From IMG/VR virus record IMGVR_UViG_3300008261_000008: a stretch of DNA of 64,000 nt; one strand, written 5' to 3'. Shown piece by piece: positions 14,576 through 64,000 of the stretch; positions within the stretch are counted from its first letter, which is position 1; every line of letters begins with the position of its first letter. This DNA comes from an uncultured virus (IMG/VR IMGVR_UViG_3300008261_000008) (taxonomy: Duplodnaviria > Heunggongvirae > Uroviricota > Caudoviricetes). The translations under genes were made by a program, and so were the position numbers. Under the pieces are notes generated by a model, which was given only the letters and a program-made list of their open reading frames with translations, had not been told where the DNA came from and did not search any database.

Positions 14576-14961
14576 CTTTTGCCTCCGACATCAAGTTTAG
14601 ATTTAATATAGTTAATTTGGTCTTTTGTTAGAATTTTCAATGCTTGTTGGGCCTTCTCATTACTATAGCCATAGTATGATTTGACTGCATCAAGATCTTG
14701 AATTTTCTCTTTTTTAAGCCACGGAGAAAATCTTTTCCGTTTCCTGACACTATTTAGTAAAAAATCATATTGAAGTCTAGAAGTCAGTTGATGATTGAGA
14801 TTCATCTCATTTGCAAACATAACCGTATCAATGTGACCTGAAAGACATTTATTCACAACAAATGCTGGATACTTCTTTTCCCATTGAGGATCTCCACCAT
14901 CCATCAAATAATCTTTTGTGAAGTTAATGGAATTTAGATAGTCTTTTAGTTCGTAACTCAT
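14572..14961 (-). CDS. gp62: clamp loader small subunit
   Basis: LNSIN, QYDFLLNSVRKRKRFSPW, YYGYSNEKA; position before regA. Confidence 0.93.
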   Translation of the reverse strand: MSYELKDYLNSINFTKDYLMDGGDPQWEKKYPAFVVNKCLSGHIDTVMFANEMNLNHQLTSRLQYDFLLNSVRKRKRFSPWLKKEKIQDLDAVKSYYGYSNEKAQQALKILTKDQINYIKSKLDVGGKR

Positions 14962-16079
14962 CGGATAATATCAATAGATTCTGGGTTCTTATTCCAAGTC
15001 TCAAGTTCTGTGCGAAGACGACCTTCAGACTTCAGAGTTTCATATCGATTAGAGGCCTTTTTCCTCCACCAGTTCACAAGGTGATCAAAATGAAACTTAT
15101 CATAGTTTTGACCGGGACGTAGAACTTCATCTTGTCCAAGAATGACTTCACGAGCATTCTCAAACCCGTAATCAGAAATATAAAATCTCTTCTGTTCAGT
15201 CAGATTTTTTGCATTTGCAATCGCAGTCTGGAACTCCACAACCTTTTGAGAAGGTAAGCTTTTCTTGATGATTGAGATCATCTTTTGTTGGGTCTTGAGT
15301 TTCCGACTGGATGCGTCCTCCTTCACCAGAGATTGGTTGTCGTTCCTCTGAATAAACCATTTGTTTAACTCCTGAAAGATCTCATCATGGAGCAGAGGAG
15401 TAAAATCACTTTGAGTTAGACCCTTGTACCTCATGTAGGGTTTCAAACCATCATACTGTGATGAGGCTTTTGTAGACCCATAGAGAGAAGTTGTCTCAAA
15501 AGAACAAATGTCTGATCCATACTTCTTATTTAACGTCTCACGAGCAGTATGAGAACAACAAAGAAGTGCGAGGAGTTTACCTCCGAGATAATTAAATCCA
15601 AAAGGTTGTGTAGGTACAATGATAAATCCCATGATTGCATGACGATTAAACCTAGACAACTCGGGAGTTTGTCCAAGCCAATCATTACGGGGTTTTGAAT
15701 TAATAGTTGGAGATCCAAATCGACAGAAACCAACAATCTTCTGCGTGTTAGTTTCTTGAACAATCCACTTTAGTGATTTACCAGGAATACTATCTTCAAT
15801 CGCATGAGAAGTAGTAATCTGAAGTCTTTCGTTGAAATATTCATTTGTAAATCCACCTCTTTCTCCTGCAGGATAAACTTTGAAGTTCATATCCTGTGGG
15901 TGCATATCAAAAGCATCAAACATGTCATCCTCGGGACCAATCCCAAGAATGGATGACGGCATTTGTTCCATTCTATCCAATTTCACATTACGCAGATATT
16001 CATCGATTCTACCCATGTTGGAGAAGTAATCGATGAATTTATCCGCTGCGTAAATCGCATCATCAAGTTCTAGTTGCAT
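14958..16079 (-). CDS. DUF4338/Druantia DruA-like protein
   Basis: PFGFNYLGGKLLAL and FETTSLYG motifs recalled from the DruA/DUF4338 family. Confidence 0.6.
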   Translation of the reverse strand: MQLELDDAIYAADKFIDYFSNMGRIDEYLRNVKLDRMEQMPSSILGIGPEDDMFDAFDMHPQDMNFKVYPAGERGGFTNEYFNERLQITTSHAIEDSIPGKSLKWIVQETNTQKIVGFCRFGSPTINSKPRNDWLGQTPELSRFNRHAIMGFIIVPTQPFGFNYLGGKLLALLCCSHTARETLNKKYGSDICSFETTSLYGSTKASSQYDGLKPYMRYKGLTQSDFTPLLHDEIFQELNKWFIQRNDNQSLVKEDASSRKLKTQQKMISIIKKSLPSQKVVEFQTAIANAKNLTEQKRFYISDYGFENAREVILGQDEVLRPGQNYDKFHFDHLVNWWRKKASNRYETLKSEGRLRTELETWNKNPESIDIIR

Positions 16080-20334: not shown

Positions 20335-22347
20335 CTACAAGATATTTTTTACTTTACCAAAAATGTTTCTATTCCAAAAGTCACAAATAGAAACTTCTAT
20401 TTCAGGATCAACAACATACAAAGAAGCTAAACATCTTTGTTGACAACTCTGAACTTCTGTATGTCCATATAACAAAGTGGTAGCATCGGTAGAAAAAATA
20501 TTAGAAAGATTTACAAATTTTTTCCCAGGTCCAACAAAAATATTTGCAAACTTTTGAGATTCTTTATACAAATCAGCAACAACAAACTTTGTAGGAGTTT
20601 TTTTAAAGACTGACCAATACTTAATAAATGATTCGGTTCCACCAAAATGGTCCATAAGTTCTTTGATTGATAAATCAAAACTATGATCCATTACAAATCT
20701 TGAGTGATCTGTTTTCCCCAACCAAGTAAAATAATCCTTTTCGGAAAAAGATTTGATACATTCTACAATATCATTTGTCTTCCATGTATGTAAGTGTTTA
20801 TACCATTGTATACTTTTAATATTAAAATCATATACAATAATTTTACCATTTAAGTCCAATTTTTTATTTTTAAAAATATCAAACAACTTAAATCCACTTG
20901 CAGTATTTACAACTAAATTAAACTTACCTTCATTATTAATTGACATTGATTCACTATTAAATAACCATATTTGATCTTTTACTGATTTTGCATCATTTAT
21001 CAACTTTACTTGATTCCAATTCTGACCTTCATATGGAGTTAAAGTTTTAATACTTGATTCAAACTTTTCAGTATTAAATTCTGGATAATAATAAAACTTA
21101 TTAAAACGTAATTTTTCGCTCAAAGTTATTACTGGCCAATCATTTAAAAACATAGAACTCAAAAGTTTCCAACCCTGTCCAGCGTTAGATTGGTATTCTT
21201 GTTTGTTTGAATACTTAACCCACAATGGAGTATAGTCATCATGAAAGTTTTCAATACTTCTTTCAACTACAGGTAATAATTGTTCTTCAGAACACCAATC
21301 ACCAAATTCCGGACATCCAACTTCTTTCCATGCAGAAACGTTGACTATAAAAAATTGGTGGTGTAATTCCAACCACCTCCCAGGCCAAGATAATATATGT
21401 CCAGCTATACCAAAATTATTTTCATTTATAAAATCTCTAATTTCTTTATCATAATCAAAACTCTTCAAAGTACATCCAGAAGATTGAATCACACAATACT
21501 CATATTTTTTAATTAAAGCTTCATTCAATATCTCATGTATTTCATCTCCACAAATTATATCTACATTACTTCTAGATCTGTTGAGATAAAATAAGGTTGC
21601 ACCTTTGGATCTTAGGTACATCGAAAAATTATTAATCCTATTTCGTTGATTATAAACCCCGTAACATACCCGTTTCTTTCGAGTTTTAAGTTGATCAAAT
21701 GCTGTTTGTATTAAATTATTATTAATAGATCCATGAACAATAAAATGATATCTAGGTTCATCACTATTATTAAAAACAGCGTGAACATTTCCTATATCTA
21801 AAAAAAATCCTGTCCCTTGACTAAAAGGAACTTTTCCCCATTTTTCAAAGTAAAAATTACATCCATCAGGATTATTAATTGCTATGTTCAAAGGACCAAA
21901 AATTCTACCATCACCATCAGAATGTGGCATAATGTATCCACCAGGAGATAGTTTCATGATCCTTACTCGATCGTAACTACCATATCCCAATTTTTTTAAA
22001 AATTTAACGCAAGTAGGAAAATATACACAAGCTTCTGTCCAATCATAATCTGGTTCAGTCAGTCCATATTGATCATAATTTTCAGTAGCATCTGGACGTA
22101 TTCCATGTAAAGTTAAAGCAGACCAACCTTCATGAGAATAACTTAGATGTTTATCTTTCTGCCTATGACCCACAAAAAGATGATCATTATCAATGCATTC
22201 TTGATGCATTTCTTCAAAGTCATCAGAAAAATCTATTTGAAGAAAAGGCCAATCTGAGTCAAATACATTGAATTGTTTTGAAGAATTTGGGGGATACCAC
22301 TGATTCTCCAATGAGTTTTCTATAAATGTTTCAATTATTTTGTTCAT
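20335..22347 (-). CDS. multidomain protein: Asp/Asn beta-hydroxylase-like 2OG-Fe(II) domain plus uncharacterised C-terminal domains
   Basis: RVRIMKLSPGGYIMPHSD, LNIAINNP, HAVFNNSDEPRYHFIVHG in the first ~210 aa. Confidence 0.75.
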   Translation of the reverse strand: MNKIIETFIENSLENQWYPPNSSKQFNVFDSDWPFLQIDFSDDFEEMHQECIDNDHLFVGHRQKDKHLSYSHEGWSALTLHGIRPDATENYDQYGLTEPDYDWTEACVYFPTCVKFLKKLGYGSYDRVRIMKLSPGGYIMPHSDGDGRIFGPLNIAINNPDGCNFYFEKWGKVPFSQGTGFFLDIGNVHAVFNNSDEPRYHFIVHGSINNNLIQTAFDQLKTRKKRVCYGVYNQRNRINNFSMYLRSKGATLFYLNRSRSNVDIICGDEIHEILNEALIKKYEYCVIQSSGCTLKSFDYDKEIRDFINENNFGIAGHILSWPGRWLELHHQFFIVNVSAWKEVGCPEFGDWCSEEQLLPVVERSIENFHDDYTPLWVKYSNKQEYQSNAGQGWKLLSSMFLNDWPVITLSEKLRFNKFYYYPEFNTEKFESSIKTLTPYEGQNWNQVKLINDAKSVKDQIWLFNSESMSINNEGKFNLVVNTASGFKLFDIFKNKKLDLNGKIIVYDFNIKSIQWYKHLHTWKTNDIVECIKSFSEKDYFTWLGKTDHSRFVMDHSFDLSIKELMDHFGGTESFIKYWSVFKKTPTKFVVADLYKESQKFANIFVGPGKKFVNLSNIFSTDATTLLYGHTEVQSCQQRCLASLYVVDPEIEVSICDFWNRNIFGKVKNIL

Positions 22348-50494: not shown

Positions 50495-53400
50495 TTATTT
50501 TTTAAGTTCATTAATTTGATTTTTCAGGTCTTCTATTTGTGATTGTTGTTCTTTAATTGCCTCGATTAGAACTGCTACCATGTTTCCATAAGCAACAGAC
50601 TTAGTTCCATCTTCAGTTTCAAATACTAATTCAGGGATTACTTCTTCAACTTCTTGAGCGACAACACCAATTTGATGTTCGCCATTCATATCAATACGAT
50701 CATATTCAACTCCACGCAACTTCAATACTTTTTCTAGAGCCTTTTCAATTGTATTGATGTTTGTCTTTAATTTAATATCAGATTGTGCAGTTACTGTGCC
50801 TGGGAAAGTAGTATTACCGGAACCATCAAGGAGAGTTGCAGTTCTGGTTAGAGTTGAAAATACGCCAGTATATTGTCTAACGTAAATTGGTTCGGTTCCA
50901 TCATCTGCAGTTGCAATTTCAACATAACCAGCGTTAGAAGCAGTGCCTCCGATTAAAATGCGGAACTGGTCGTTGTCCGCCATGTTACCACGAACAAGTT
51001 CAGTGGTATTTGTTCCAGTTACAGTATTGGTTAAATTACCAGTTACATTACCAGTAACGTTTCCAGTCACATTACCACTTACATTACCAGTCAATGCACC
51101 AACAAATCCTCCAGTTGAAGTTGTTACTCCAGTAACTCTAATGCCAGTGGAATTAACAATTACATTAGTACCAATAGTAGCAGAAGTAGCAGTTAATGCG
51201 TTAACCGTAACACTTGGGGTTCCAGTTAATCCAGTAGCATTACCATTGATACTACCGTTAAATGTTCCAGAGAATGTTGCGGTAATTATTCCTGCGTTAA
51301 AGTTACCAAAAGCATCACGAGCTACAATGGTGCTTGCTGTATTTGCTGCAGTTGCGTTTGATGTAACAGTAAATGTAGCTGCTCCAGAGTTATTATAAGT
51401 GGTGGAACCAGAAATACCAGTTCCAGATGTATTCATAGTTAATGTATTCGCAAGAGGTCTCTGCCATGTACCAGAGTCATTCCACAATTCTAGATTACTT
51501 GCAACGTTCCAAGAACCAGTTGCATTATTAGATGCATACCATCTTGCGCCACTTCCAGGTTGGAGTAAGAACAATTGGTTATTATTGTTACCAGCTGGAG
51601 CACTATGTACCCAAGATCCATCAGTATAGTAAATATTAGAACTTAAGAAGACTATTCCATCCCAAGTAAGAACACCAAATGATGACTGGGAAGGTTTCTT
51701 GATGATCAATTGAGAGTCATTATCACCAGTTGTTCCGTTAACAACTAGTCCACCACCACCAATCGCTGTTCCAGTACCACCAACAATTGTTGTACCCGTA
51801 ATAGTATTTCCATTAATATTACCAGAAGCATCACGTCTTACAATAGTATTTCCTGTATTTGTGGTTGCAGAACTAAATCCATTGAGTAAAGCAGCATTTA
51901 AGTTAGTTACCTCTGTAGTTGAAGAAACTGTAAATGGAGCAGTTCCTGTTGCAACTGTTGAAATTAATCTTGTAGCAGAAATTGTTGAAGCGGCAGTTAA
52001 AGCTCCTGCAGCAGTTAGAGTTAATATTTCTGAGAATGATGTTTGGCTATTTACTTTATACCATCTATGAGTTCCTCCAGAATAATAAGAAACCGTATCA
52101 CTATGAATTCCAAATCCACCAGCCCAAGTACTGCCATCATTATAAAGGGTAATTTTATTTGGACCACGAGCAGCATCATTAAAGGAATTATCAAATACTA
52201 ATCTCTTATAAGTTCCAAATGCAGTGGTATTAGAAGAAGCACCACCATCATTGATGGTAACATTGTTACTGAATGTTCCAGCGCCGCCACTAAATGTTGT
52301 TGCACTAATTGTACCAGCGCTAAAGTTACCAGAAGCATCACGAGAAACTATCGCACCTGCAGTATTTGCAGAAGTTGCATTAGATGTAACTGTGAATGTA
52401 ACAGCACCAGAACCATTATAAGTTGTAGAACCGGAAAGACCAGTTCCAGATGTATTCAAGGTTAATGTATTTAAATTTGATCCAAGTGAAACACCAGAAA
52501 TGGTTGAGTTTGCTAGATTTGCATTTGTAATTCCAGCAGAACCACTTAAGTTTGCATTAGTCAGACCAGAAATAGTATTAGATCCTGCAGCGATTGTTTT
52601 GTTAGTTAATGTATCAGTTGAAGATACAGTTACAACATTAACGCCTTCAACGGCAATTCTACCTGCAGAAGCTCTAGTAATTGTAGTGTCAGTTAGATTT
52701 CCAAGTTCAATCGAAGTAATAATTCCCGATGTAGCTGTTATTGTATTAACAGTGATACTTGGTGTTCCACTTAAGCCTGTTGCATTTCCAGTGACGTTGC
52801 CAGTTAGTGGTCCTACGAATGAAGTTGCAGTTACTACGCCAGTTACGTTAATACCTGTAGAATTGAGAACTACATTTGTACCCACTACACCTGAAGTTGC
52901 AGTTAAAGCATTGATAGTGATACTTGGTGTTCCACTTAAGCCTGTTGCATTTCCAGTAACATTTCCTGTCAATGGACCTACAAAAGAAGTTGCAGTTATT
53001 ATACCAGTTACATTGATACCAGTGGAATTAAGAACTACGTTTGTGCCTACTACAGCTGAAGTAGCAGTTAGAGCATTGATGGTGATACTCGGAGTTCCTG
53101 AGAGACCTCCTGCTGTACCACTCACATTACCTGTTACATTGCCAGTAACATTACCAGTTAATGGACCTACAAATGAAGTTGCAGTTACAATTCCTGCAGC
53201 AAATCCACCAAGAACGTTACGAAGTACAATTCTACTTGCAGTATTTGCACTATCAGTAGAGTAACCTTCCAATAGTGATGCATTAAGATTAGTTACCTGT
53301 GTGGTAGAAGTGACAGTAAATGGAGCTGTACCTGTTGATACATTGGAAATAAATCTTGTAGCGGTAACAATACCTGGGAACGTAGTATTACCGGAACCAT

Positions 53401-56400
53401 CAAGAAGAGTTGCAGTTCTCTGTAAGGATGTAAAAGTACCACTGTACTGTCTTACATAAATTGGTTCTGTTCCATCGTCTGCAGTTGCAATTTCAACATA
53501 ACCAGCGTTAGAAGTTGTTCCACCAATAAGGATGCGGAAGAAATCATTATCAGCCATGTTACCACGAACTAGTTCTGTGGTAGCAGTTCCTGTAACAGTA
53601 TTACTGATATTACCTGTTAGGTTGCCTGTAACATTACCAGTTAAATTGCCAGTTACATTACCGGTTAGAGGTCCAACGAAAGAAGTAGCCGTAACAATAC
53701 CTGCACTAAATCCACCCCAAGCATCTCTAGAAACAATAGTACTTACCGTATTAGTTGTTGAAGAGTTGAGTCCATCAAGTAAATCTGCATCTAGTCCAGA
53801 TCCAGAACCATCATTACCTTGATGCCATAACTTGTTCCAAGCTGTTGTTCCACTACCATTTGTTGAACGATAGTAAATATCATTACTATTATAAAAACTT
53901 CCAGCAAACTGCATTGCATAGTAATTCGCTGTATTACTATGTGTAGAACTGAGAAGGTGATACCAAGTATTTGTTGTTTGTGGCCAACCTTCTGCAGTTG
54001 TAGCAGTGTCAGTCTGCCAGAAACCACTCTTAGTTCTTGTAGTAATATCGTCCTTGGTTTTAGCTTCAGCTTCAAATGAACTTGAGAATAATTGTGTTCC
54101 TGACCAAGTATTTGATCCGTCTAAAAGTGGAATTGTATTTCCAGATGTTCCAGTGTTCTTCCCATCAAGTAAATCTGCATTCAAATTAGTTACTAATGTA
54201 GTAGAAGAAACTGTGAATGGTGCAGTTCCTGTAGCCTGAGTTGATGTGAATCTTGTTGCTTGTATTGCTCCAGTAAATGTACCTGTTCCAGCAACACTAA
54301 CTGTTACAACATCTGTTCCTCCAGAATTTCTAAGAATCCAATTCGTTGTATACTGATTATAAAGAGAACCGTTGAAGTATTGAATCTTCGCAGCTTTATT
54401 GCCCGTCCAATTTGAACTATTTGCAAAAGAAATATCTTTATCAATTAGAACAGTGAATCCAGCACCCACTACTCCTGCAAATTCTGGACTTCCAGTTAAA
54501 GTATAAGAACTTCCATTTCCAAGTAAAGTAAATCCAAGTGAAGGAGCTGCAGTAAGATTAGTTCCACCTCTTGTTACTGGTAGAGTTCCAGTACTATTGA
54601 GAATATCAAGATAATATGCACTGTTCTGACCACCTAGAGTGGCAGCATCCACATCTCCAGTCACAGAATTCTTAATACTTATAGCACCATCTGTACCAAC
54701 TGTAAATGTAGAAGACTTGAATCTAGATACACCAAGAGTTGAATATTCATCTGAAGAAGTTTGAGCTCTATTCAGAGTTATGTTGATATTTCCATAGTAA
54801 GTATTAACTCCAACTCCACCTGGGGCTAGTTCGGAACTAGTAGCAGTTACACCAATTGGTTGAGTTGTTCCAATTCCAACTGAAGTAATTACTTTCTGAT
54901 ATGAAGAATCACCTCTCAAGAATGTCTGGTCATTAGCAGTTCCACTTCCAAGTCTAGATGGTGATAATGTACCAGTAATAATGTTGGACGCATCTAAACT
55001 TCCTACAGAAAGTAGTGACCAATTATTGGTATCTGAAGATGAAGTGTTAACAGTTCTAGAATACTCAACATTTTGCTCTGTAAGAGTCATAATTCCTACA
55101 GCACTATTAATGGTGCCTCCTGCCAAACTTACAGTGTTTAGAAGTAGACCATTAATAGAAGCTAAAGCTGCAGCTCTAGTTTCATGGAATGTAAATGAGT
55201 TTGTAGTTACTGATCCAGCAAAGTAGAAACTACCAGTAGTAATTCCGGTTGGAGTATTACCAGTGACTTTTACTGCTTCACCCTGACTCAATCCATGGTT
55301 TTTAAATGTTATCTGATCAGTTAAAGTATTGACCCCAACACGACTCAATGAATGAGTTAAAGTACCACTACTTGTCAGATCTTTAATAGTTACAAGTGCA
55401 TAGGTTGAATAAAGTTGAACAGATGTTAAACCTACAGTCTTAATATAATATGTTGTAGTGTCCAGTAGTGGACCTATTGGAGTTCCACCACCACTACGGT
55501 AAATTACTGGATCTCCATCAACAAAACTATGACCAGATCCAACAACAATTCTATCATTTGCAAAGTCAACACTACCGCCAACGCTAATATCCGTAGGGGT
55601 GAAGGTTACAGTATATCCTATTCCAATATTAGTTGAAATAGCAACTGCATTTCTATCAGAAACGAAGTCTGAAAGTGCAGAACTTCCTGGGAATTTCTGT
55701 CCATTAGAAAGGGCAAGATAGAGCCTTGTTTCTACAGTAGCTATGTTAACAGTAAAGTTAGATCCACCAGTTCTTCCACCAATTGGAGTGGGATTATTAA
55801 GAGTTAATACGTCACCTACAGCAAATTTGTATCCACCAGTATTAATTGCAACATTAGTAACTGTTCCACTAACACCAACTGTAATCGTAGCAGTAATTCC
55901 GGTTCCAATACCAGTAGAAGTATCAAGACGAACACCCGTATAGATTCCTGGATTATTGTATCCAGAACCACCAACTAAAGAATTCAATGTTAAAGGTACG
56001 CCTCTGACAAGACCAGTAGTTCCATAACCTACATTTGGGAAAGATAATGTAGTTGTACCTAAACCAACTCCAATTCTTGGTGGAGCAGTTACAACACCAA
56101 TTGCACCACCACCAGAAGTTACACTAACTACTTCATCCCCATTCAGGAAATTGTAGACAGTTGAATTGTTTAGAACCAAATATTGACCTACAGTATCAGT
56201 AATTAGAACGAATGAATCTGTTGGCTCAACTACAGTATCTCCGGATACTAAGCTAGTAGCAGGAATATAGTTAACTAACTGAGTTCTTCCACCATCTACT
56301 GAAGACTTATAGTAATTGACAGTTTTTGGTGGAATTAGATCAGCATTAATTTGACCGATTGAATTGAGTTGAACAACAGCGTTAGGAATAGCGTTTGTAG

Positions 56401-59400
56401 AAACTGATTTATCAATAAAATCTCCAAGTCTATTATTCAAGAATGATCTAGTTGAAAGTTGTGTAGGAACTCTAGAGTGCTTAGGTCCACCAATTTCATT
56501 ATCACCAAGATCCGTATCCGTAGAGAACTCTTCAATTACGTTACCACCAGACAGCGATAATCTAATAGAATCAAGAGTACCAATAGTAACAGTATTATTG
56601 AAGATAATGTTACCAGTTCTGTTATAGGCAACAATCGAATCACCAATCTTAAAGTCTCCAAGTTCATTGGTACCGGATGAATAAACTCTACCACCAAGTT
56701 CAGAAACTTGTTCAGATCTTGGATCGGTTTGACCTCCATTTTGTGGGAGAGCATTATAATCTATACCAGAACCAGAGAATTCCCAAGTGTGTGATGAAGA
56801 GTTTACAATAGATGGTCTGTGGAAGTGTAGTTTATACACTTCAGGTAAAGTTCCAATATTCTGAACGAGTGTTCCAGCTATTGTAGAATCTGTCTTAAAT
56901 TCAACAGTCCAATAAGTAGTTAATCCGACAACAGCACTTACCCCGATAGAAATCGGAGATGGACTGTGATCATTAATGTTTAATACTGTTGTTCCATTAG
57001 TAACTGAGAAATTCCTTCTAACTCCAGAAGAAAGTTCTAATGCGACAATAAGTTCTCTAGTAGTGTTGTTATACGTTACCGCAAATCCAGTTGCAGTTCC
57101 TCCAACTACAGTTTGACTGATTAATCTACCAGAAACAAACGATGCTGTAGAACCCACTCCAGCAAGGGTTAGTTTTTGATATGAATTATGTGAATCAATA
57201 ATTTCTTTTACGAAGAAGTCTTGAGTTGACTTTGTAATAGTATGAATACCAGTACTTAGTGAAGTCAAGTCAACGATGGTATTCAATGACTCATCTTCAG
57301 CTAACTTGAAATTATCAGCATCAATATAAACAACATAGTATTGGTTGTCGTTAACCAGTCCACCAACAATTCTATTTGGAATTACTTGTTCGTCTCCATT
57401 GTAAATAACTGGATCAGCATTATTAAATCCGTGAGTTGTAATTGTAATAGTATTCTCAGTTAGACCAACTCCAGTAGCTCCATTAAATTCTTTTACTGTT
57501 ACTGCTGGTTTGAACTGTGAAGTTCTATCAACTCCATTTCCATCGAAGAATCTGAGAATATAGTTTTCAACATCAGATCTACCATATCCAACTGCCTTGA
57601 GTGTTTGTAATCCACCAGAAGTGCCAGTCGCGGCAACTCTACCACGATCAAAAATGAACGAATTTCTACTATATCCAGTAGATCTTAAAGCATATAAACC
57701 GAAGTTAGTTGCAGAGTTTGTAATGGATAGGTATCCACCAGACTGCGCTAGGGATCCATATCTACAGAAAATTTGGAAACAAGAAACAACCTGTGAATAT
57801 CCATCGTTAATAACACGCCAACCGATACCACCGAAGGAAACCATCGTAAATGCTGCGGCAACCATGGACTTACCTTGTTCTGGTTGAATCGCATCTGGAC
57901 CAACTTCCACTTCTTCAGAAATAAGAGGTACGTTTGGTGTTAGTACTTTATTTCCATCAACCAACATTCCATTACCACCTAAGAATGATAGAATGGAACA
58001 GTTCTGAATATATGGAGATCTAGTAATAGTTGGTTTGTCTAATTTAGTAGCATAACCGGCTCTGGAAGTTAGATTATCCGAAGGATCATCAAAAGCTACA
58101 GCGTAATCAAATGTATTTTGGGGAACACCTGCGAGATCAATCGCATCCTTCATAGCAAAACCAGTGAGATAGATTCCATTTCTTACACGGAATAAATCTT
58201 TACCAGCATTTGCAGGTCTAATTATAGTATTTCTTAGGTTATCGCCAACGATTGCAACATCATCATAAAGAATGATTGGGTTATCTTCTACATAGTTTCC
58301 AGCCTCAACGATAATACAAACAGGTTGTGACTGTGTTCCTGGTGCAACCAATGCTGGGGCTGCAGTTGTGCCAAGACCAACAATAGTTGTAATGATGCCA
58401 ACATAGTTAACTAATGCAGATCTGACATCCGCACAATCGGTTAAACCTAAGTTTGTAGTTGCAATTCCAACAATACTTCCACTAATGACTGCAGTTGTAA
58501 GAATTCCAACAAGGTTATCAATATTAGATCTTATGTTCGCACAAACATTTACATCTTTGTTTGTGGATCCAACACTAACATCATTTTGGATACTTAAATC
58601 CTGGTAATTTAACCAATTTGTTACAGCTCTCTTTGCATAAGTACCTAAACTCTGGAATGCGTAAGCTGAGATTACTTCTTCACCCAACAATCCATCTGTT
58701 CTTGCTGCACCAGCACCATCGAAGTACTTTTTAGTTGCATAAAGAATATGTTGGTTAGTTCCGTAAGAGATATCTTGAGCAACAGCATCGACAATGTATC
58801 CAAGATCTCTTGCACATTTACGTCCACCAACAACATTAGTGGTTCCAATTCCTACAAAATCACTTACATTATAGGTAGAGTTGACCAAGAAATATCCATA
58901 ATTTGTTGTTGCACCAATTCCAGCAGTACTACCAGAACCAACAGCTGTTGTAACAATTCCAGTCAACGTATCAATAGTTGATCTTACATTAGAACAAGAA
59001 TTAGGATCAGTGTTAAATCCAGTTACTGGATCTGCAGTAATAGTAAGATCTCTAGAATTAAGCTGATTGGTAACAGCTTTCTTCATGTAATCTCTAGCAC
59101 TCTCAAACACATAATTAGATTCTGCGGTTTCTCCGGCTAAACCATCCGCAAGAAGATTACCTACATTACTGAAATAGAATCCAGTAAATGCACGAGCATA
59201 ATTATTACCACCTGTAAACACATCAGTAGAAACGGCATCAATAAAGAATCCGGTATCTCTAGCACACTTCCAGATACCCTCTGTCATTCCATATCCAATG
59301 ACGTTGAGATCAAAATCACCGTAATTTACTGCAGGGAGTCCACTAGTATTTCCAACTCCTATTGCTGCAGTTACGATTCCAACGAGAGAAACAATGGTAT

Positions 59401-62400
59401 TTTGTACATCTGTACATGCAGTTGTACTGGAAACACCTACGTTACCTCCACCTCCGTTATATGTTTCTGGTCCACTAGAAACATTCAAATTCTTATTTGT
59501 GAGAAGATTTGTAATAGCTCTTCTCATCTGAGTTCCAGCTTGTTGGAATCCGTAAATTGTTTGTTGTTCTTCTCCAGCTAAACTGGTAGTTCCTACACCA
59601 ACAAAATAGAATCCTGTGAAAGCTCTTGCATAATTATTACCACCAGTAAAGACATCAGTAGAGACTGCATCAACAAAGTATCCCAAGTCTCTCTGACACT
59701 TAGCTGAAGAAACTCCAGAAGACCAAAGTGTTGGGTATTGAACGGATATTGCAGTTAAAGCGGTAGCAACAATCTCACTCTTATTAATTTGGATTAATCT
59801 ATAAGCATCATAATATCTGGAATCTTCTGTAGTTGATGTGACTCCAGGGCCTGGAACATAGAATCCTGTTGGGAATCCAATAGCAATAGATGCGATTGAT
59901 TTATCTACGATTTCTTGTTTGTTAATCTGGATTAACTTATAAGAATCATAATATCTGGATCTTTCATTAGTTTCTTGTTCACCTGGGAAGTAGAATCCAG
60001 TTGTAGCAGCAAGAGCTACAGATGCAAGAGACTTATCAATAATTTCTTGACGGTTGCCAATGATCAGATTTCTAGCATCTTTAGATCTATGGAAGTAGTT
60101 TGTATTTGTATTCTCTGGATCATCAATAATTGTAAAATCAAAAGTTTGAGATACTGCAGTCTGATAAAGGGTTGGTGGCGACTGGTTATTAATAATATAT
60201 TGACCAAGGAATTTAATATACTCATATGCAAAAATAGCCTCTTCTTCTTCACCTGCAACATATGAAGTAGCACCAGACCAATACGCTAATCCAGCTTCTC
60301 TAGACTTGGAATTTCCACCAAATCTAATATCATAAGCTAATGCATCTACAAGATATCCAATATCTCTTTTACAAATTACTGGATCATAATCCATCAAACG
60401 AGTTGAAATATCCTCATAGTTGAATTCAAGATAAGCTACTACTTCTTCTTTAATGAATTCTTTGTTGGATTCAATTAAATTACCAGCATCAAGGTATCTT
60501 TGACCAGGAATGATAAAGCTATCAAAAGATGCTAATTGTGATGCCCTCTTAATGGTTTTAACTGGAAGAGTTTTACCATCATTTGCGTCATCACCATTAA
60601 CTGAAGAAACATAATATCTGTTTTCATACAATCCAGTACCAGTTGCAAATCCCAGAGTTCCATCTGCATTTAAACCAAGTAATTGTCCATTCTGACCTAA
60701 TGTTGGTGGTAAAACCAAATCATAATTGGTTGCAATTCCAAGTTGTGATGTCTTAAATGTAACGTTATTTCTAAGAGAAGTAAATGTATTAATTCCAGAA
60801 ACTTGAACATTCGTAAATACACCGACGTTACCGGTAATACTGTTAACACCGCTTACATTATTATTGTTTCCATTTATTGTTACTGAAGACGATCCAATTG
60901 TTAAAATTCCAGTAATTCTTGCATTACCAGTTACAACTAAACTTGTATTACCAGTACCAATTCTAACATTACCAAGTGTAGAAATACCACTTACATTGAT
61001 GTTTGTTGCACTTAAGTGAGTAACGAATCCAAGAGTTGCATTTAAATTATCTACGTTACCATTAACAATATTAACATTTTGTCCTATTAGTGAACTTGCG
61101 TTTGCACTGGTTATAATACCAGAATTAATATATGCAGTATTAATATTAAATGCAGTCGCTACCGCTGTTGTAATTCCAAGATAAGTCGCAATTCCACTAT
61201 TTACATTTAAAGTATTGACAGTAGCAGTTGTTATATTTGCATTTGTTATAATACCTGCATTGATTTTTGCTTCATTAGTTACACTACTAGTAATTCCAAG
61301 ATAAGTTGCAATACCGGCGTTAAGATAAAGCAGGTTAGCAGAACCAGAAGTAATTCCTACATTTGTAATAATACCTGTATTAACATAAGAGGTTCCTGAA
61401 TAAGAAACTCTTACATCCAAATAAGTTGCAACTCCAGTGTTTACATTTAATCTATCAATAGTTGCGGTAGTTATTCCAGCAGAGGTAATTACACCAACAT
61501 TGATGTTTGCTCTATCAGTTAAACTAGTTGTAACACCGAGATAAGTTGCAAACCCAATGTTTATATTTGCTGATCCAATATATGCAGTGTTTATATGAGC
61601 AGTTGTTACAATACCAGTATTAATATTAGCTTGATTTGTATATGAAGTGGTAACATTCGCATTTGTTATTGTTGCCGCAGTAATTACACCAACATTAATA
61701 TTAGCACGATTTGTATAAGATGTAGAAATACTAGAATTTGTTACTACTTCTGAATCTATTATAGCCGAAGTAATAATTCCAGTATTAATATTAGCCACAT
61801 TACTATATGATGTGGTGATGTTGGCATTAGTTATTATTGCCGCAGTAATCACACCAACATTAATATTGGCTTGATTTGTATAAGATGTTGAAATTCCTGC
61901 ATTTTGAATTGTTGCATATTCGATAGATGCATTAGTAATGATGCCACTATTAATATTAGCAGTATTAGTATAAGAATTCGTGGCATTTATATTAGTAACC
62001 GTAGCCGCAGTTATGAATCCTACGTTAATATTAGCTACATTAGTGTATGAACTTGTGATGCCTGCATTAGTTATTACTGCAGATGTTAAAATACCACTAT
62101 TGATATTAGCTTGATTTGTATATGAAGTAGTGATATTTGCATTAGTGATTATAGCACCAGTAATAATTCCCGTGTTAATATTGCCAGAGTTTACATATAG
62201 TGTTGAAACAGATCCATTAGTTATCGTCGCGGCGGTAATTAAACCTACGTTAATATTAGCTTGATTTGTGTATGAAGTGCTAATATTCGCATTAGTTACT
62301 ATTGCATTTGTTATAGTTGCATTAGTAATAATACCACTATTAATGTTAGCTACATTAGTATATGATGTAGTGATTCCTGCATTAGTTATTATGGCTTCAG

Positions 62401-64000
62401 TGATGATACCACTATTGATATTAGCTTGATTTGTATATGAAGTAGTGATATTTGCATTAGTTACTGTAGCCGCAGTTATAAATCCTACATTAATATTAGC
62501 TACATTAGTATAGGACGTAGTAATATTGGCATTAGTCGTTACTTCATTTGTTATAGTTGCATTAGTGATAATTCCACTATTAATGTTAGCTACATTAGTG
62601 TATGATGTGGTGATTCCTGCATTAAGAATAGTTGCATATTCAATAGTTGCAGCAGTAATAATACCACTATTAATGTTAGCTACATTAGTATAGGACGTAG
62701 TAATATTGGCATTAGTGATTATAGCACCAGTAATAATTCCTGTATTAATGTTGCCAGAATTGACATATAGATTTGAAACTGATCCATTAGTTATTGTTGC
62801 TGCAGTGATAATACCAGTATTGATATTAGCTGTATTTGTGTAAGAGGTTATAATATCTGCATTAGTTACTACTGCCTCAGTAATTACACCTACATTGATA
62901 TTAGCTCTATTTGTATAAGAAGTAGAGATTCCTGCATTAGTAATAGTAGCGGAATCAATAGTGGCTGAAGTAATAATTCCACTATTAATGTTAGCTACAT
63001 TAGTATATGATGTAGTGATTCCTGCATTAGTTATTATGGCTTCAGTGATGATACCAGTATTAATATTGGCCTGGTTTGTATAAGAGGTGGTAGTAAAGGA
63101 GTTGTCAATAATACTAGTCTGGCCAGTTAACGAAGTTACAACGCCAAGATTAATATTAGCTACATTAGTGTATGATGTGGTAATATTGGCATTAGTAATA
63201 GTTGCGCCAGCAATAGTAGCCGAAGTAATAATTCCACTATTAATATTGGCTACATCAGTATAAGACGTGGAGATTCCAGCATTAACAATAGTTGCAAACT
63301 GAGTATTAGAACTTGTAATTCCCGCTTGACTAATCGTAGCTGATGTTATAATTCCAGTATTAATATTGGCTTCATTAGAGTAAGATGTTGCAACAAATGA
63401 AAATGAGGTTATTCCAACATTAATATCTGCCGAACTAATAGTTGCACTAGTAATAATGCCAGTATTAATATTAGCAATGTTTGTATAAGAGGTGGAAATT
63501 CCAGCATTAGAAATAGTCGCACTAGAAATAGTAGCTGTAGTAATAATTCCACTATTAATATTGGCTTGATTTGTGTAGGAAGTGGTAATATTGGCGTTGG
63601 TAATAGTGGCACCAGTAATCGTAGCTGTAGTAACAATACCGATGTTAATATTAGCTTGATTTGTATATGATGTTGTTATACCAACATTACCTATGGTAGC
63701 ATTAGTAATAATACCTGTGTTAATATTAGCTTGATTAGTGTAAGACGTGCTAATATTAGCATTAGTTACGGTAGCACCAGTAATTGTAGCAGTAGTAATG
63801 ATACCACTATTAATATTAGCCGTATTTGTATAAGAATTCGTAGCGTTTATATTAGTAACAGTAGCTCCACCAATTGTAGCAGTTGTGAGGATACCAATAT
63901 TGATGTTTGCCTGATTAGTTGTAGATGTCTGTACATTAAGGTTAGTAATTCCAGCACCAGTTATGGTTGCAGAAGTAATGATACCAATATTAATCCTAGC
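50495..64000 (-). CDS. giant tail fibre / structural protein (>4500 aa, 5'-truncated): pentapeptide beta-repeat stalk, beta-helix head with phycobiliprotein-like inserts, fibre repeats, C-terminal peptidase S74 chaperone
   Basis: The frame of the 3785-aa track ORF continues upstream to base 64000 (ARINIGIITSATIT...), with no stop seen by manual reading. S74 motif SDIKLKTNI...IGVVAQEVE...LIEAIKE at 50495-50783. Confidence 0.85.
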   Translation of the reverse strand, partial: ARINIGIITSATITGAGITNLNVQTSTTNQANINIGILTTATIGGATVTNINATNSYTNTANINSGIITTATITGATVTNANISTSYTNQANINTGIITNATIGNVGITTSYTNQANINIGIVTTATITGATITNANITTSYTNQANINSGIITTATISSATISNAGISTSYTNIANINTGIITSATISSADINVGITSFSFVATSYSNEANINTGIITSATISQAGITSSNTQFATIVNAGISTSYTDVANINSGIITSATIAGATITNANITTSYTNVANINLGVVTSLTGQTSIIDNSFTTTSYTNQANINTGIITEAIITNAGITTSYTNVANINSGIITSATIDSATITNAGISTSYTNRANINVGVITEAVVTNADIITSYTNTANINTGIITAATITNGSVSNLYVNSGNINTGIITGAIITNANITTSYTNVANINSGIITAATIEYATILNAGITTSYTNVANINSGIITNATITNEVTTNANITTSYTNVANINVGFITAATVTNANITTSYTNQANINSGIITEAIITNAGITTSYTNVANINSGIITNATITNAIVTNANISTSYTNQANINVGLITAATITNGSVSTLYVNSGNINTGIITGAIITNANITTSYTNQANINSGILTSAVITNAGITSSYTNVANINVGFITAATVTNINATNSYTNTANINSGIITNASIEYATIQNAGISTSYTNQANINVGVITAAIITNANITTSYSNVANINTGIITSAIIDSEVVTNSSISTSYTNRANINVGVITAATITNANVTTSYTNQANINTGIVTTAHINTAYIGSANINIGFATYLGVTTSLTDRANINVGVITSAGITTATIDRLNVNTGVATYLDVRVSYSGTSYVNTGIITNVGITSGSANLLYLNAGIATYLGITSSVTNEAKINAGIITNANITTATVNTLNVNSGIATYLGITTAVATAFNINTAYINSGIITSANASSLIGQNVNIVNGNVDNLNATLGFVTHLSATNINVSGISTLGNVRIGTGNTSLVVTGNARITGILTIGSSSVTINGNNNNVSGVNSITGNVGVFTNVQVSGINTFTSLRNNVTFKTSQLGIATNYDLVLPPTLGQNGQLLGLNADGTLGFATGTGLYENRYYVSSVNGDDANDGKTLPVKTIKRASQLASFDSFIIPGQRYLDAGNLIESNKEFIKEEVVAYLEFNYEDISTRLMDYDPVICKRDIGYLVDALAYDIRFGGNSKSREAGLAYWSGATSYVAGEEEEAIFAYEYIKFLGQYIINNQSPPTLYQTAVSQTFDFTIIDDPENTNTNYFHRSKDARNLIIGNRQEIIDKSLASVALAATTGFYFPGEQETNERSRYYDSYKLIQINKQEIVDKSIASIAIGFPTGFYVPGPGVTSTTEDSRYYDAYRLIQINKSEIVATALTAISVQYPTLWSSGVSSAKCQRDLGYFVDAVSTDVFTGGNNYARAFTGFYFVGVGTTSLAGEEQQTIYGFQQAGTQMRRAITNLLTNKNLNVSSGPETYNGGGGNVGVSSTTACTDVQNTIVSLVGIVTAAIGVGNTSGLPAVNYGDFDLNVIGYGMTEGIWKCARDTGFFIDAVSTDVFTGGNNYARAFTGFYFSNVGNLLADGLAGETAESNYVFESARDYMKKAVTNQLNSRDLTITADPVTGFNTDPNSCSNVRSTIDTLTGIVTTAVGSGSTAGIGATTNYGYFLVNSTYNVSDFVGIGTTNVVGGRKCARDLGYIVDAVAQDISYGTNQHILYATKKYFDGAGAARTDGLLGEEVISAYAFQSLGTYAKRAVTNWLNYQDLSIQNDVSVGSTNKDVNVCANIRSNIDNLVGILTTAVISGSIVGIATTNLGLTDCADVRSALVNYVGIITTIVGLGTTAAPALVAPGTQSQPVCIIVEAGNYVEDNPIILYDDVAIVGDNLRNTIIRPANAGKDLFRVRNGIYLTGFAMKDAIDLAGVPQNTFDYAVAFDDPSDNLTSRAGYATKLDKPTITRSPYIQNCSILSFLGGNGMLVDGNKVLTPNVPLISEEVEVGPDAIQPEQGKSMVAAAFTMVSFGGIGWRVINDGYSQVVSCFQIFCRYGSLAQSGGYLSITNSATNFGLYALRSTGYSRNSFIFDRGRVAATGTSGGLQTLKAVGYGRSDVENYILRFFDGNGVDRTSQFKPAVTVKEFNGATGVGLTENTITITTHGFNNADPVIYNGDEQVIPNRIVGGLVNDNQYYVVYIDADNFKLAEDESLNTIVDLTSLSTGIHTITKSTQDFFVKEIIDSHNSYQKLTLAGVGSTASFVSGRLISQTVVGGTATGFAVTYNNTTRELIVALELSSGVRRNFSVTNGTTVLNINDHSPSPISIGVSAVVGLTTYWTVEFKTDSTIAGTLVQNIGTLPEVYKLHFHRPSIVNSSSHTWEFSGSGIDYNALPQNGGQTDPRSEQVSELGGRVYSSGTNELGDFKIGDSIVAYNRTGNIIFNNTVTIGTLDSIRLSLSGGNVIEEFSTDTDLGDNEIGGPKHSRVPTQLSTRSFLNNRLGDFIDKSVSTNAIPNAVVQLNSIGQINADLIPPKTVNYYKSSVDGGRTQLVNYIPATSLVSGDTVVEPTDSFVLITDTVGQYLVLNNSTVYNFLNGDEVVSVTSGGGAIGVVTAPPRIGVGLGTTTLSFPNVGYGTTGLVRGVPLTLNSLVGGSGYNNPGIYTGVRLDTSTGIGTGITATITVGVSGTVTNVAINTGGYKFAVGDVLTLNNPTPIGGRTGGSNFTVNIATVETRLYLALSNGQKFPGSSALSDFVSDRNAVAISTNIGIGYTVTFTPTDISVGGSVDFANDRIVVGSGHSFVDGDPVIYRSGGGTPIGPLLDTTTYYIKTVGLTSVQLYSTYALVTIKDLTSSGTLTHSLSRVGVNTLTDQITFKNHGLSQGEAVKVTGNTPTGITTGSFYFAGSVTTNSFTFHETRAAALASINGLLLNTVSLAGGTINSAVGIMTLTEQNVEYSRTVNTSSSDTNNWSLLSVGSLDASNIITGTLSPSRLGSGTANDQTFLRGDSSYQKVITSVGIGTTQPIGVTATSSELAPGGVGVNTYYGNINITLNRAQTSSDEYSTLGVSRFKSSTFTVGTDGAISIKNSVTGDVDAATLGGQNSAYYLDILNSTGTLPVTRGGTNLTAAPSLGFTLLGNGSSYTLTGSPEFAGVVGAGFTVLIDKDISFANSSNWTGNKAAKIQYFNGSLYNQYTTNWILRNSGGTDVVTVSVAGTGTFTGAIQATRFTSTQATGTAPFTVSSTTLVTNLNADLLDGKNTGTSGNTIPLLDGSNTWSGTQLFSSSFEAEAKTKDDITTRTKSGFWQTDTATTAEGWPQTTNTWYHLLSSTHSNTANYYAMQFAGSFYNSNDIYYRSTNGSGTTAWNKLWHQGNDGSGSGLDADLLDGLNSSTTNTVSTIVSRDAWGGFSAGIVTATSFVGPLTGNVTGNLTGNVTGNLTGNISNTVTGTATTELVRGNMADNDFFRILIGGTTSNAGYVEIATADDGTEPIYVRQYSGTFTSLQRTATLLDGSGNTTFPGIVTATRFISNVSTGTAPFTVTSTTQVTNLNASLLEGYSTDSANTASRIVLRNVLGGFAAGIVTATSFVGPLTGNVTGNVTGNVSGTAGGLSGTPSITINALTATSAVVGTNVVLNSTGINVTGIITATSFVGPLTGNVTGNATGLSGTPSITINALTATSGVVGTNVVLNSTGINVTGVVTATSFVGPLTGNVTGNATGLSGTPSITVNTITATSGIITSIELGNLTDTTITRASAGRIAVEGVNVVTVSSTDTLTNKTIAAGSNTISGLTNANLSGSAGITNANLANSTISGVSLGSNLNTLTLNTSGTGLSGSTTYNGSGAVTFTVTSNATSANTAGAIVSRDASGNFSAGTISATTFSGGAGTFSNNVTINDGGASSNTTAFGTYKRLVFDNSFNDAARGPNKITLYNDGSTWAGGFGIHSDTVSYYSGGTHRWYKVNSQTSFSEILTLTAAGALTAASTISATRLISTVATGTAPFTVSSTTEVTNLNAALLNGFSSATTNTGNTIVRRDASGNINGNTITGTTIVGGTGTAIGGGGLVVNGTTGDNDSQLIIKKPSQSSFGVLTWDGIVFLSSNIYYTDGSWVHSAPAGNNNNQLFLLQPGSGARWYASNNATGSWNVASNLELWNDSGTWQRPLANTLTMNTSGTGISGSTTYNNSGAATFTVTSNATAANTASTIVARDAFGNFNAGIITATFSGTFNGSINGNATGLTGTPSVTVNALTATSATIGTNVIVNSTGIRVTGVTTSTGGFVGALTGNVSGNVTGNVTGNVTGNLTNTVTGTNTTELVRGNMADNDQFRILIGGTASNAGYVEIATADDGTEPIYVRQYTGVFSTLTRTATLLDGSGNTTFPGTVTAQSDIKLKTNINTIEKALEKVLKLRGVEYDRIDMNGEHQIGVVAQEVEEVIPELVFETEDGTKSVAYGNMVAVLIEAIKEQQSQIEDLKNQINELKK
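50798..53602 (-). repeat. 77-codon module duplicated within the fibre gene (53372-53602 and 50798-51028)
   Basis: NTVTGT.TTELVRGNMADND.FRILIGGT.SNAGYVEIATADDGTEPIYVRQY...TATLLDGSGNTTFPG present in both copies. Confidence 0.9.
60900..64000 (-). repeat. degenerate tandem coding repeat (5-aa periodicity; SYTNQ-ANINT-GIITS-ATITN)
   Basis: Dozens of ANINxGII motifs; includes an exact 78-nt duplicate at 62334-62411 and 62979-63056. Confidence 0.9.

Follow-up and report, generated by a model that had tools for sequence, protein, structure and literature searches.

The window analysed here, a 64,000-nucleotide stretch from an uncultured tailed virus (IMG/VR IMGVR_UViG_3300008261_000008), encodes on its minus strand a giant tail-fibre protein in which we identified a block of 726 amino acids (aa) predicted to consist of four phycobiliprotein-like globin domains nested within one another. 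Both bilin-attachment cysteines of the phycobiliproteins have counterparts in this block. We lean towards the reading that the protein is a virion biliprotein, which would be displayed on the particle with bilins covalently attached, presumably in part by a lyase, to its fibre domains. Phage virion proteins do contain a real family of domains related to phycobiliproteins, and it is widespread.

Predicted fold and nested architecture

An initial annotation, made from the sequence alone, had proposed a phycobiliprotein fold, and this proposal holds on the basis of profile matches, an AlphaFold2 model, Foldseek and structural alignments. The contiguous unit (59351-59830) matched the Pfam profile PF00502 with an E value of 4.6e-4 and 20.6 bits, which is under the gathering score of 22.2, and only over profile positions 32-97; 40 of 50 aligned relatives matched PF00502 at E values up to 1. 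Profiles were required to reach the Protein Data Bank (PDB), as a phmmer search of the region against PDB sequences gave no match. With a profile of 50 units, 33 of 34 PDB matches were phycobiliproteins (best E 0.002), and with a profile of 111 units all 29 were (best E 0.0006), phycocyanin alpha ranking first. A search of the ESM Atlas returned no usable match. The AlphaFold2 model of the inner unit (predicted local distance difference test, pLDDT, 83; predicted template modelling score, pTM, 0.83) matched phycoerythrin beta in Foldseek (template modelling score 0.74). The same protein was the best of 48,161 chains in a structural search (Z 17.3, root mean square deviation (rmsd) 1.7 Å over 140 residues). 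Ranks 1-8 were all phycobiliproteins. Overall, the unit was matched best by phycoerythrin and phycocyanin beta subunits (Z 17-18, rmsd 1.7-1.9 Å). Other globins reached a Z of at most 12.1, photocobilin and RsbR-type proteins coming next, and heme globins at most 11.2. The N-terminal half resembles CpcA in sequence (hhalign probability 90.6), while the whole fold resembles beta subunits.

The structural alignments begin at residue 30-34 of the phycobiliprotein subunits, indicating that the X/Y pairing helices are absent from the unit; the helices that precede the inner unit belong to the next domain outward. The suggestion that the virion might mimic a phycobilisome therefore finds no support, as it is these helices that mediate alpha/beta pairing. 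As modelled, the domain is biliprotein-like in fold and binding residues, yet it is not a phycobilisome subunit. Compared with the phycobiliproteins of PF00502 (CpcA, CpcB, CpeB and the bilin domain of ApcE), it shares the globin-type fold, a CxRD motif that opens the core helix and is followed by GG, and a second cysteine in the beta-153 register. It differs in lacking the X/Y helices, so that alpha/beta dimers would not form, and in being embedded, nested or in tandem, in virion proteins of 2000-6000 aa. In a 59-row tree of phage units and host subunits (no BBAG globins and no outgroup), a long branch (100/100) separated all 49 phage units from the 10 host subunits, which came from one Synechococcus genome, and the family could not be placed inside the alpha or the beta subunits. 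To judge from these sequences, the phage units are an old sister family of the phycobiliproteins and not a recent capture. A search for stand-alone forms of 74-294 aa returned 19 proteins, all on contigs below 3 kb and probably fragments, and no cellular globin.

All motifs described in the initial annotation were found again on the minus strand of the open reading frame (ORF) at 50495-64000. Helices of the form R-x-x-D-x-x-x-L-I-x-x-N begin at 60499, 60088, 59956 and 59818. The cysteines of the CxRD motifs are found at 60371-73, 59696-98, 59264-66 and 58814-16, with GGN or GTN and then (L/V)xGE after each of them, and the terminal cysteines at 59414-16, 58994-96, 58541-43 and 58433-35. When the 726-aa region was shuffled 2000 times, CxRD occurred 0.017 times on average and at most twice, against the four observed; the longer patterns, which were themselves derived from this sequence, never occurred. 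The block holds 8 of the 12 cysteines of the 4501-aa ORF, the other 3775 residues holding four. Four domain copies had been proposed, and all four are present, but the one at 59351-59818 is the only uninterrupted copy, the remaining three being divided around it. The features are as follows.

50495..64000, minus strand: giant tail-fibre/virion protein ORF, open at its 5' end, at least 4501 aa
60185..60499, minus strand: domain 1 (outermost), N-terminal part with helices A/B, the CxRD helix (Cys 60371-73), GGN and the xGE helix
58370..58435, minus strand: domain 1, terminal helix (Cys 58433-35), ~650 residues past the domain 1 CxRD
60005..60088, minus strand: domain 2, N-terminal helices A/B, putative partner of 58481-58819
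58481..58819, minus strand: domain 2, C-terminal part from CxRD (58814-16) to the terminal Cys helix (58541-43)
59873..59956, minus strand: domain 3, N-terminal helices A/B, putative partner of 58931-59269
58931..59269, minus strand: domain 3, C-terminal part from CxRD (59264-66) to the terminal Cys helix (58994-96)
59351..59818, minus strand: domain 4 (innermost, contiguous), phycobiliprotein-fold unit with Cys 59696-98 (CxRD, beta-82/alpha-84 type) and Cys 59414-16 (beta-153 type)

Along the chain, the pieces follow each other as A1-E1, A2, A3, [A4-E2-H], E3-H, E4-H, H. The A/B helices of domain 3 are nearest to those of the inner unit (54%) and their partner is nearest to the inner core (62%); A3 being closest to A4, and E3 to E2, is what last-in-first-out nesting would predict. 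Relatives vary in unit count yet keep N-terminal and C-terminal pieces balanced (correlation 0.91, 36 proteins). The AlphaFold2 model of the whole region is weak (pLDDT 57, pTM 0.55, 8 rows) and informs only on the inner and outer domains. One phycobiliprotein chain aligned to it across residues 6..721 (129 residues, Z 14.8), joining the first half-domain (60185-60499) to the last helix (58370-58435), and the remaining 49 alignment rows fall on the inner unit. We conclude that the domains are nested and not in tandem; the outer and inner nesting is that seen in the model, and we infer the pairing of the two middle domains (2 and 3) from the sequence. Two other loci, L013 and L018, have ~95 additional residues that interrupt their third unit ahead of the last helix; domains 2-4 occupy the same position within domain 1.

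The block would thus be a rod made up of four monomeric globin domains of the phycobiliprotein type, in which a loop of every domain but the innermost accommodates the next one in. In domain 1, this loop precedes the last helix and takes up domains 2-4; domains 3 and 4 enter a loop that joins helix B to the CxRD helix. With such nesting, the chain would run out and back and form a side arm of the fibre.

Cysteines, ligands and rival readings

The initial annotation had likened both cysteines to bilin sites, and both do map to them. For CxRD, sequence alignment puts the cysteine at alpha Cys84 and beta Cys82; for the second cysteine, the assignment comes from the register in which the structural alignments end. 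The second cysteine lies 19 residues before the aligned end of the inner-unit model, which corresponds to residue 172 of CpcB and 184 of CpeB. The last cysteines of the host proteins, CpcB Cys153 and CpeB Cys165, are likewise 19 residues from that end, and MpeB Cys159 is in the same register. It should be noted that this register assumes an ungapped last helix; the alignment tool reports range ends only. CpcT is described as acting at the beta-Cys153 site, and T-type lyases as serving beta-153-type sites (PMC2327270).

Across 111 units with a mean column identity of 25%, only N16, C45, R47, D48, D59 and Y75 are conserved at 90% or more. In the best 150 of 550 representatives, a cysteine is present at 1011 of 1017 matching RD sites. 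We propose that a bilin would be carried covalently on the CxRD cysteine of each domain, with the Arg and the Asp holding the pigment as in phycocyanin and in BBAG-1 and BBAG-3. Loading would occur in the host cytoplasm late in infection. The bilin would come from the host pool in cyanobacteria, and from a phage heme oxygenase and reductase in hosts that lack bilins. The cyanophage subfamily would carry a second bilin on the beta-153-type cysteine, added by a T-type lyase that is plausibly the phage CpeT.

The cysteines could also be explained as structural disulfides of an extracellular virion protein, possibly pairing between the chains of a trimer, an explanation that we consider very improbable. 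Cyanophage-type units do carry both cysteines at about 1:1 (155 to 139 in 36 proteins), which speaks for such disulfides. The other 114 proteins, in a split that was based on the terminal cysteine itself, have 1025 CxRD sites and only 39 terminal cysteines. Likewise, the second cysteine is present in 17 of 17 cyanophage-type units, which were retrieved with seeds that included the terminal Cys helix, versus at most 6 of 86 tandem-type units. CxRD of domain 1 was lost in four of eight close relatives, all four of which kept the terminal cysteine. The two cysteines thus vary independently, which disfavours a disulfide, and this alternative of the initial annotation is largely excluded, as most relatives keep a single cysteine and the domain 1 terminal cysteine survives the loss of CxRD. 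The two bilin sites of CpcB are ~30 Å apart, which also counts against it.

The pocket might instead bind another ligand, such as non-covalent biliverdin or heme, another prosthetic group or a host-surface ligand, so that the arm would be an adhesin or sensor without phycobilin. BBAG-2 proteins are reported to bind biliverdin only (PMC10151467), the fold search places photocobilin and RsbR-type globins right behind the phycobiliproteins (Z 12.1), and the phage family has conserved residues of its own (N16, D59, Y75). We nevertheless consider this quite improbable. CxRD is described as a signature of the covalent phycobilin-binding clade that BBAG-2 proteins lack (PMC10151467), and the near-invariant columns include no conserved His, which makes globin-type heme ligation unlikely.

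A close parallel for a pigment is offered by BBAG-1 and BBAG-3, whose CXRD-containing members are reported to bind bilins without lyases (Rockwell et al. 2023, PMC10151467). As described there, they too are CXRD globins outside phycobilisomes, and in organisms without photosynthesis they are linked to genes for heme oxygenase and bilin reductase. They differ, in a comparison made by description only, in being bacterial globins of pre-PcyA clusters with V4R and Fe-S genes; no such cluster was found beside the window's fibre, which is surrounded by virion genes in the window. In the sections of that paper considered here, phages are mentioned only for PcyX and PcyA. We found no description of the phage domain in the literature, as judged mostly from titles and abstract openings, with supplements (which may hold domain annotations) and subscription journals outside the scope.

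A further alternative is a building block free of pigment, in which an ancient phycobiliprotein-family globin serves as a stiff spacer; CxRD would then be retained for folding, and the bilin genes would have other functions. The two ends of a globin lie together, and this would permit both nesting and tandem repeats. A spacer would account for copy numbers from 1 to ~30, for units gained and lost in balance, for a lineage distant from host subunits, for the dispensability of CxRD in domain 1 and for the occurrence, detailed below, of reductases without the domain and of the domain without reductases. It would leave unexplained why the CxRD cysteine is so rarely missing in a protein that otherwise avoids cysteine, why a separate second cysteine stands exactly at the other bilin site and why carriers that are probably not cyanobacterial phages have bilin-synthesis cassettes. 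Overall, we regard it as possible but doubtful.

Distribution, genomic context and bilin genes

The ORF lies upstream of neck, terminase, sheath, portal and capsid genes of the T4 type, and the genes around it in the window are virion genes in a structural block. Its domain region matches PHROGs 4527, 5342, 701, 18802 and 3442, and homologues carry the annotation 'virion structural protein'. Two further features lie downstream of the nested block in the protein.

57536..58045, minus strand: conserved tail-fibre core after the nested block (phrog_5342)
50624..50782, minus strand: C-terminal intramolecular chaperone Peptidase_S74 (PF13884, E 3.9e-15)

Fibre homology, the S74 chaperone and the structural gene block together mark the ORF as a tailed-phage fibre/virion protein. 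Peptidase_S74 chaperones are typical of trimeric fibres and spikes, and a trimeric state is what is known of the family. The region is homologous to parts of giant virion proteins of cyanomyoviruses (Syn9 gp101, P-HM2 gp7 and the S-RSM4 short tail fibre), but the annotations of these go no further than tail fibre, baseplate wedge or structural protein. As a stand-in for the window's phage, we used contig G002, which is 99.9-100% identical over ~9 kb and 77% complete. It encodes two photosystem II reaction-centre genes and CpeT, and the window's phage is therefore a cyanomyovirus. One further unit (G002:C1:113035-113427) is found in a second giant ORF (4379 aa) of this phage, outside the window. 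The N-terminal part of the fibre ORF (61700-64000) is a long run of N-A-N-I-N-x-G-I-I-T repeats, with indels among near-identical contigs and identity down to 87% in one of them. Elsewhere in the window, an ORF amid replication genes (14958-16079) matches Druantia DruA (PF14236, E 1.4e-9), and a 670-aa ORF (20335-22347) with an Asp/Asn beta-hydroxylase domain (PF05118) adjoins a cobS-like gene.

Among 50,697 cultured-phage records, the unit matched 285 and the whole block 374, all of them being named Synechococcus, Cyanophage or Prochlorococcus phages except for one marine virus. The window's capsid protein matches 2306 records, of which 379 + 61 are Synechococcus/Cyanophage records (~440 with a T4-type capsid). 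A second subfamily consists of tandem one-cysteine units, up to ~18 per protein in the loci and ~30 in the representatives, and occurs in uncultured contigs of up to 331 kb. No psbA was found in the tandem-type jumbo contigs (0 of 5), and their capsid is 70-75% identical to that of GAP32-like phages of proteobacteria (among the 20 of 89 matches listed). By sequence, these jumbo carriers are probably not cyanophages. The initial annotation had held that a domain equally common in phages of non-cyanobacterial hosts would refute a bilin function, though not fold homology. In part this applies: the domain is abundant in the uncultured GAP32-like jumbo phages, and we dropped the idea of a cyanophage-only domain; bilin binding is not refuted by this, as several of these phages encode their own heme oxygenase and bilin reductase. 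A scan of cellular genomes returned three loci, all in metagenome bins, and the two that were inspected look phage-like. A locus in a Saprospiraceae bin (L086:3939-10229, 155-kb contig) encodes nested two-cysteine units in a 2096-aa fibre, with neighbours that we take to be the portal and scaffold genes of a non-T4 phage.

Several gene neighbourhoods link the domain to bilins. In 14 of the 18 phages present in both the unit and the cpeT listings, the cpeT gene and the unit are no more than 5 kb apart. In Sf-CH3, the order is cpeT, tRNAs, oxygenase, pcyA and fibre gene, pcyA ending 38 bp before the fibre gene. Among 24 contigs carrying the tandem or the marine type, 4 encode a bilin reductase, in each case directly downstream of a heme oxygenase; two of the three contigs above 325 kb are among these 4. 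Jumbo phages with the two genes adjacent are G051, G053, G055 and also G071. G105, examined for the reductase only, is a fifth reductase case, from a set of capsid-selected fragments with the reductase in 1 of 16 and the domain in 10 of 16. G042 encodes many nested units together with both enzymes. The gene order around the cassette of G051 (L151:2-3527) is the same in G053 and G055, and its flanking genes presumably encode Hsp20, ClpS and CsgF/CsgG. No 5-aminolevulinic acid synthase was found in five jumbo contigs, and no cpeT in 20 records holding mainly the one-cysteine type. A 194-kb phage-like contig in a Synechococcus bin (L104, G007:C1:30923-32151) carries two adjacent bilin reductases and a nested fibre.

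Other observations weigh against a pigmented fibre, as does the loss of CxRD in domain 1. The initial annotation had predicted that the domain and bilin reductases would occur together, which was not seen in nine cultured genomes: three have both, three the reductase only (P-SSM2, S-SSM7 and Mosig, in which the absence of the domain was rechecked with filters off) and three the domain only. Genomes with only the domain are expected, since cyanobacterial hosts make bilins themselves, and those with only the reductase imply that bilin enzymes have other uses. Of 30 records picked because they have a PcyX-like gene (Mosig and 29 from among the longer of 80 loci), only 7 had the domain, and both complete records lacked it. 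A reductase was found in only 2 of the 49 contigs and bins of the first searches, most of which are fragments. The complete genome G003 has two-cysteine units, yet no cpeT, reductase or heme oxygenase was found in it. G057 (93% complete, 17 units) has no cassette; the flanking genes are missing too, so this stretch may be unassembled. At a first look, no domain was found in S-CRM01 and S-B68, whose cluster is reported to have a cpcV lyase. The phages with an adjacent cpeT are interrelated, and many accessory genes are found at the gp5-gp12 site. In the window's own phage (G002), cpeT is 84 kb from the unit, and no reductase or heme oxygenase was found in its 77% complete contig. A complex prediction of the inner unit with phage CpeT scored 0.02, to which we attach no weight for or against.

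Phage bilin genes (cpeT, pebS, pcyA and the hemO-pcyX/A cassette) thus occur in many of the same phages, sometimes adjoining the fibre gene, but also without the domain. In the parts of PMC11480375 considered here, hemO-pcyX/A-type cassettes of alphaproteobacterial phages are called 'still enigmatic', and phage bilin genes are otherwise read as support for host light harvesting, with no phage-encoded acceptor named. We dropped the domain as an explanation of all hemO-pcyX cassettes, as Mosig and G087 lack it. In Pelagibacter phage Mosig (L159:5448-7526), the heme oxygenase-reductase pair stands among virion genes, directly before the neck gene and five genes downstream of an annotated ferrochelatase; no phycobiliprotein-like domain is present, and another virion bilin acceptor is possible.

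Light and possible roles of a putative virion pigment

According to PMC6628666, P-HM1 and P-HM2 fail to adsorb in darkness, S-PM2 needs light for adsorption though not host photosynthesis, and P-SSM2, which can adsorb without light, does so better with it; it is proposed there that receptors and/or tail fibres are sensitive to light. S-PM2, P-HM1 and P-HM2 all carry the domain. P-SSM2 lacks it (searched with filters off) despite its better adsorption in light, which counts against a light role, and four phages prove nothing on light gating. BBAG holoproteins are described as photoinactive or photoinert (PMC10151467), which also disfavours a photoswitch.

Among the roles that a pigment could have, we rank light-dependent control of adsorption first, although even this role is more unlikely than not. 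Photoprotection or antioxidant cover and the stabilisation of folding by the bilin follow close behind, each being rather unlikely on its own. In its fullest form, our proposal is that many aquatic T4-like phages of both cyanobacteria and proteobacteria build pigmented virions with bilin-loaded fibre and baseplate arms, that the bilins are supplied by the host or by heme oxygenase, reductase and CpeT lyase of the phage itself, and that the cyanophage arm makes adsorption light-dependent, the free particle itself sensing light; as a whole this may be true but is, we think, unlikely.

Even without pigment, the domains form a new phycobiliprotein-related virion family and a self-nested rod, both of interest for protein structure and evolution. 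With a unit of ~160 residues, a bilin domain that is monomeric and has two sites could also serve as a fluorescent tag. If the virion does carry pigment, it would be a target for several unexplained phage pigment enzymes: a candidate phage-encoded substrate for the cyanophage CpeT, a candidate answer to why phages of non-photosynthetic bacteria make phycobilins, and a candidate answer to why S-PM2, P-HM1 and P-HM2 need light for adsorption. Such an effect would be widespread, with the domain in 374 cultured records against ~440 Synechococcus/Cyanophage records with a T4-type capsid.

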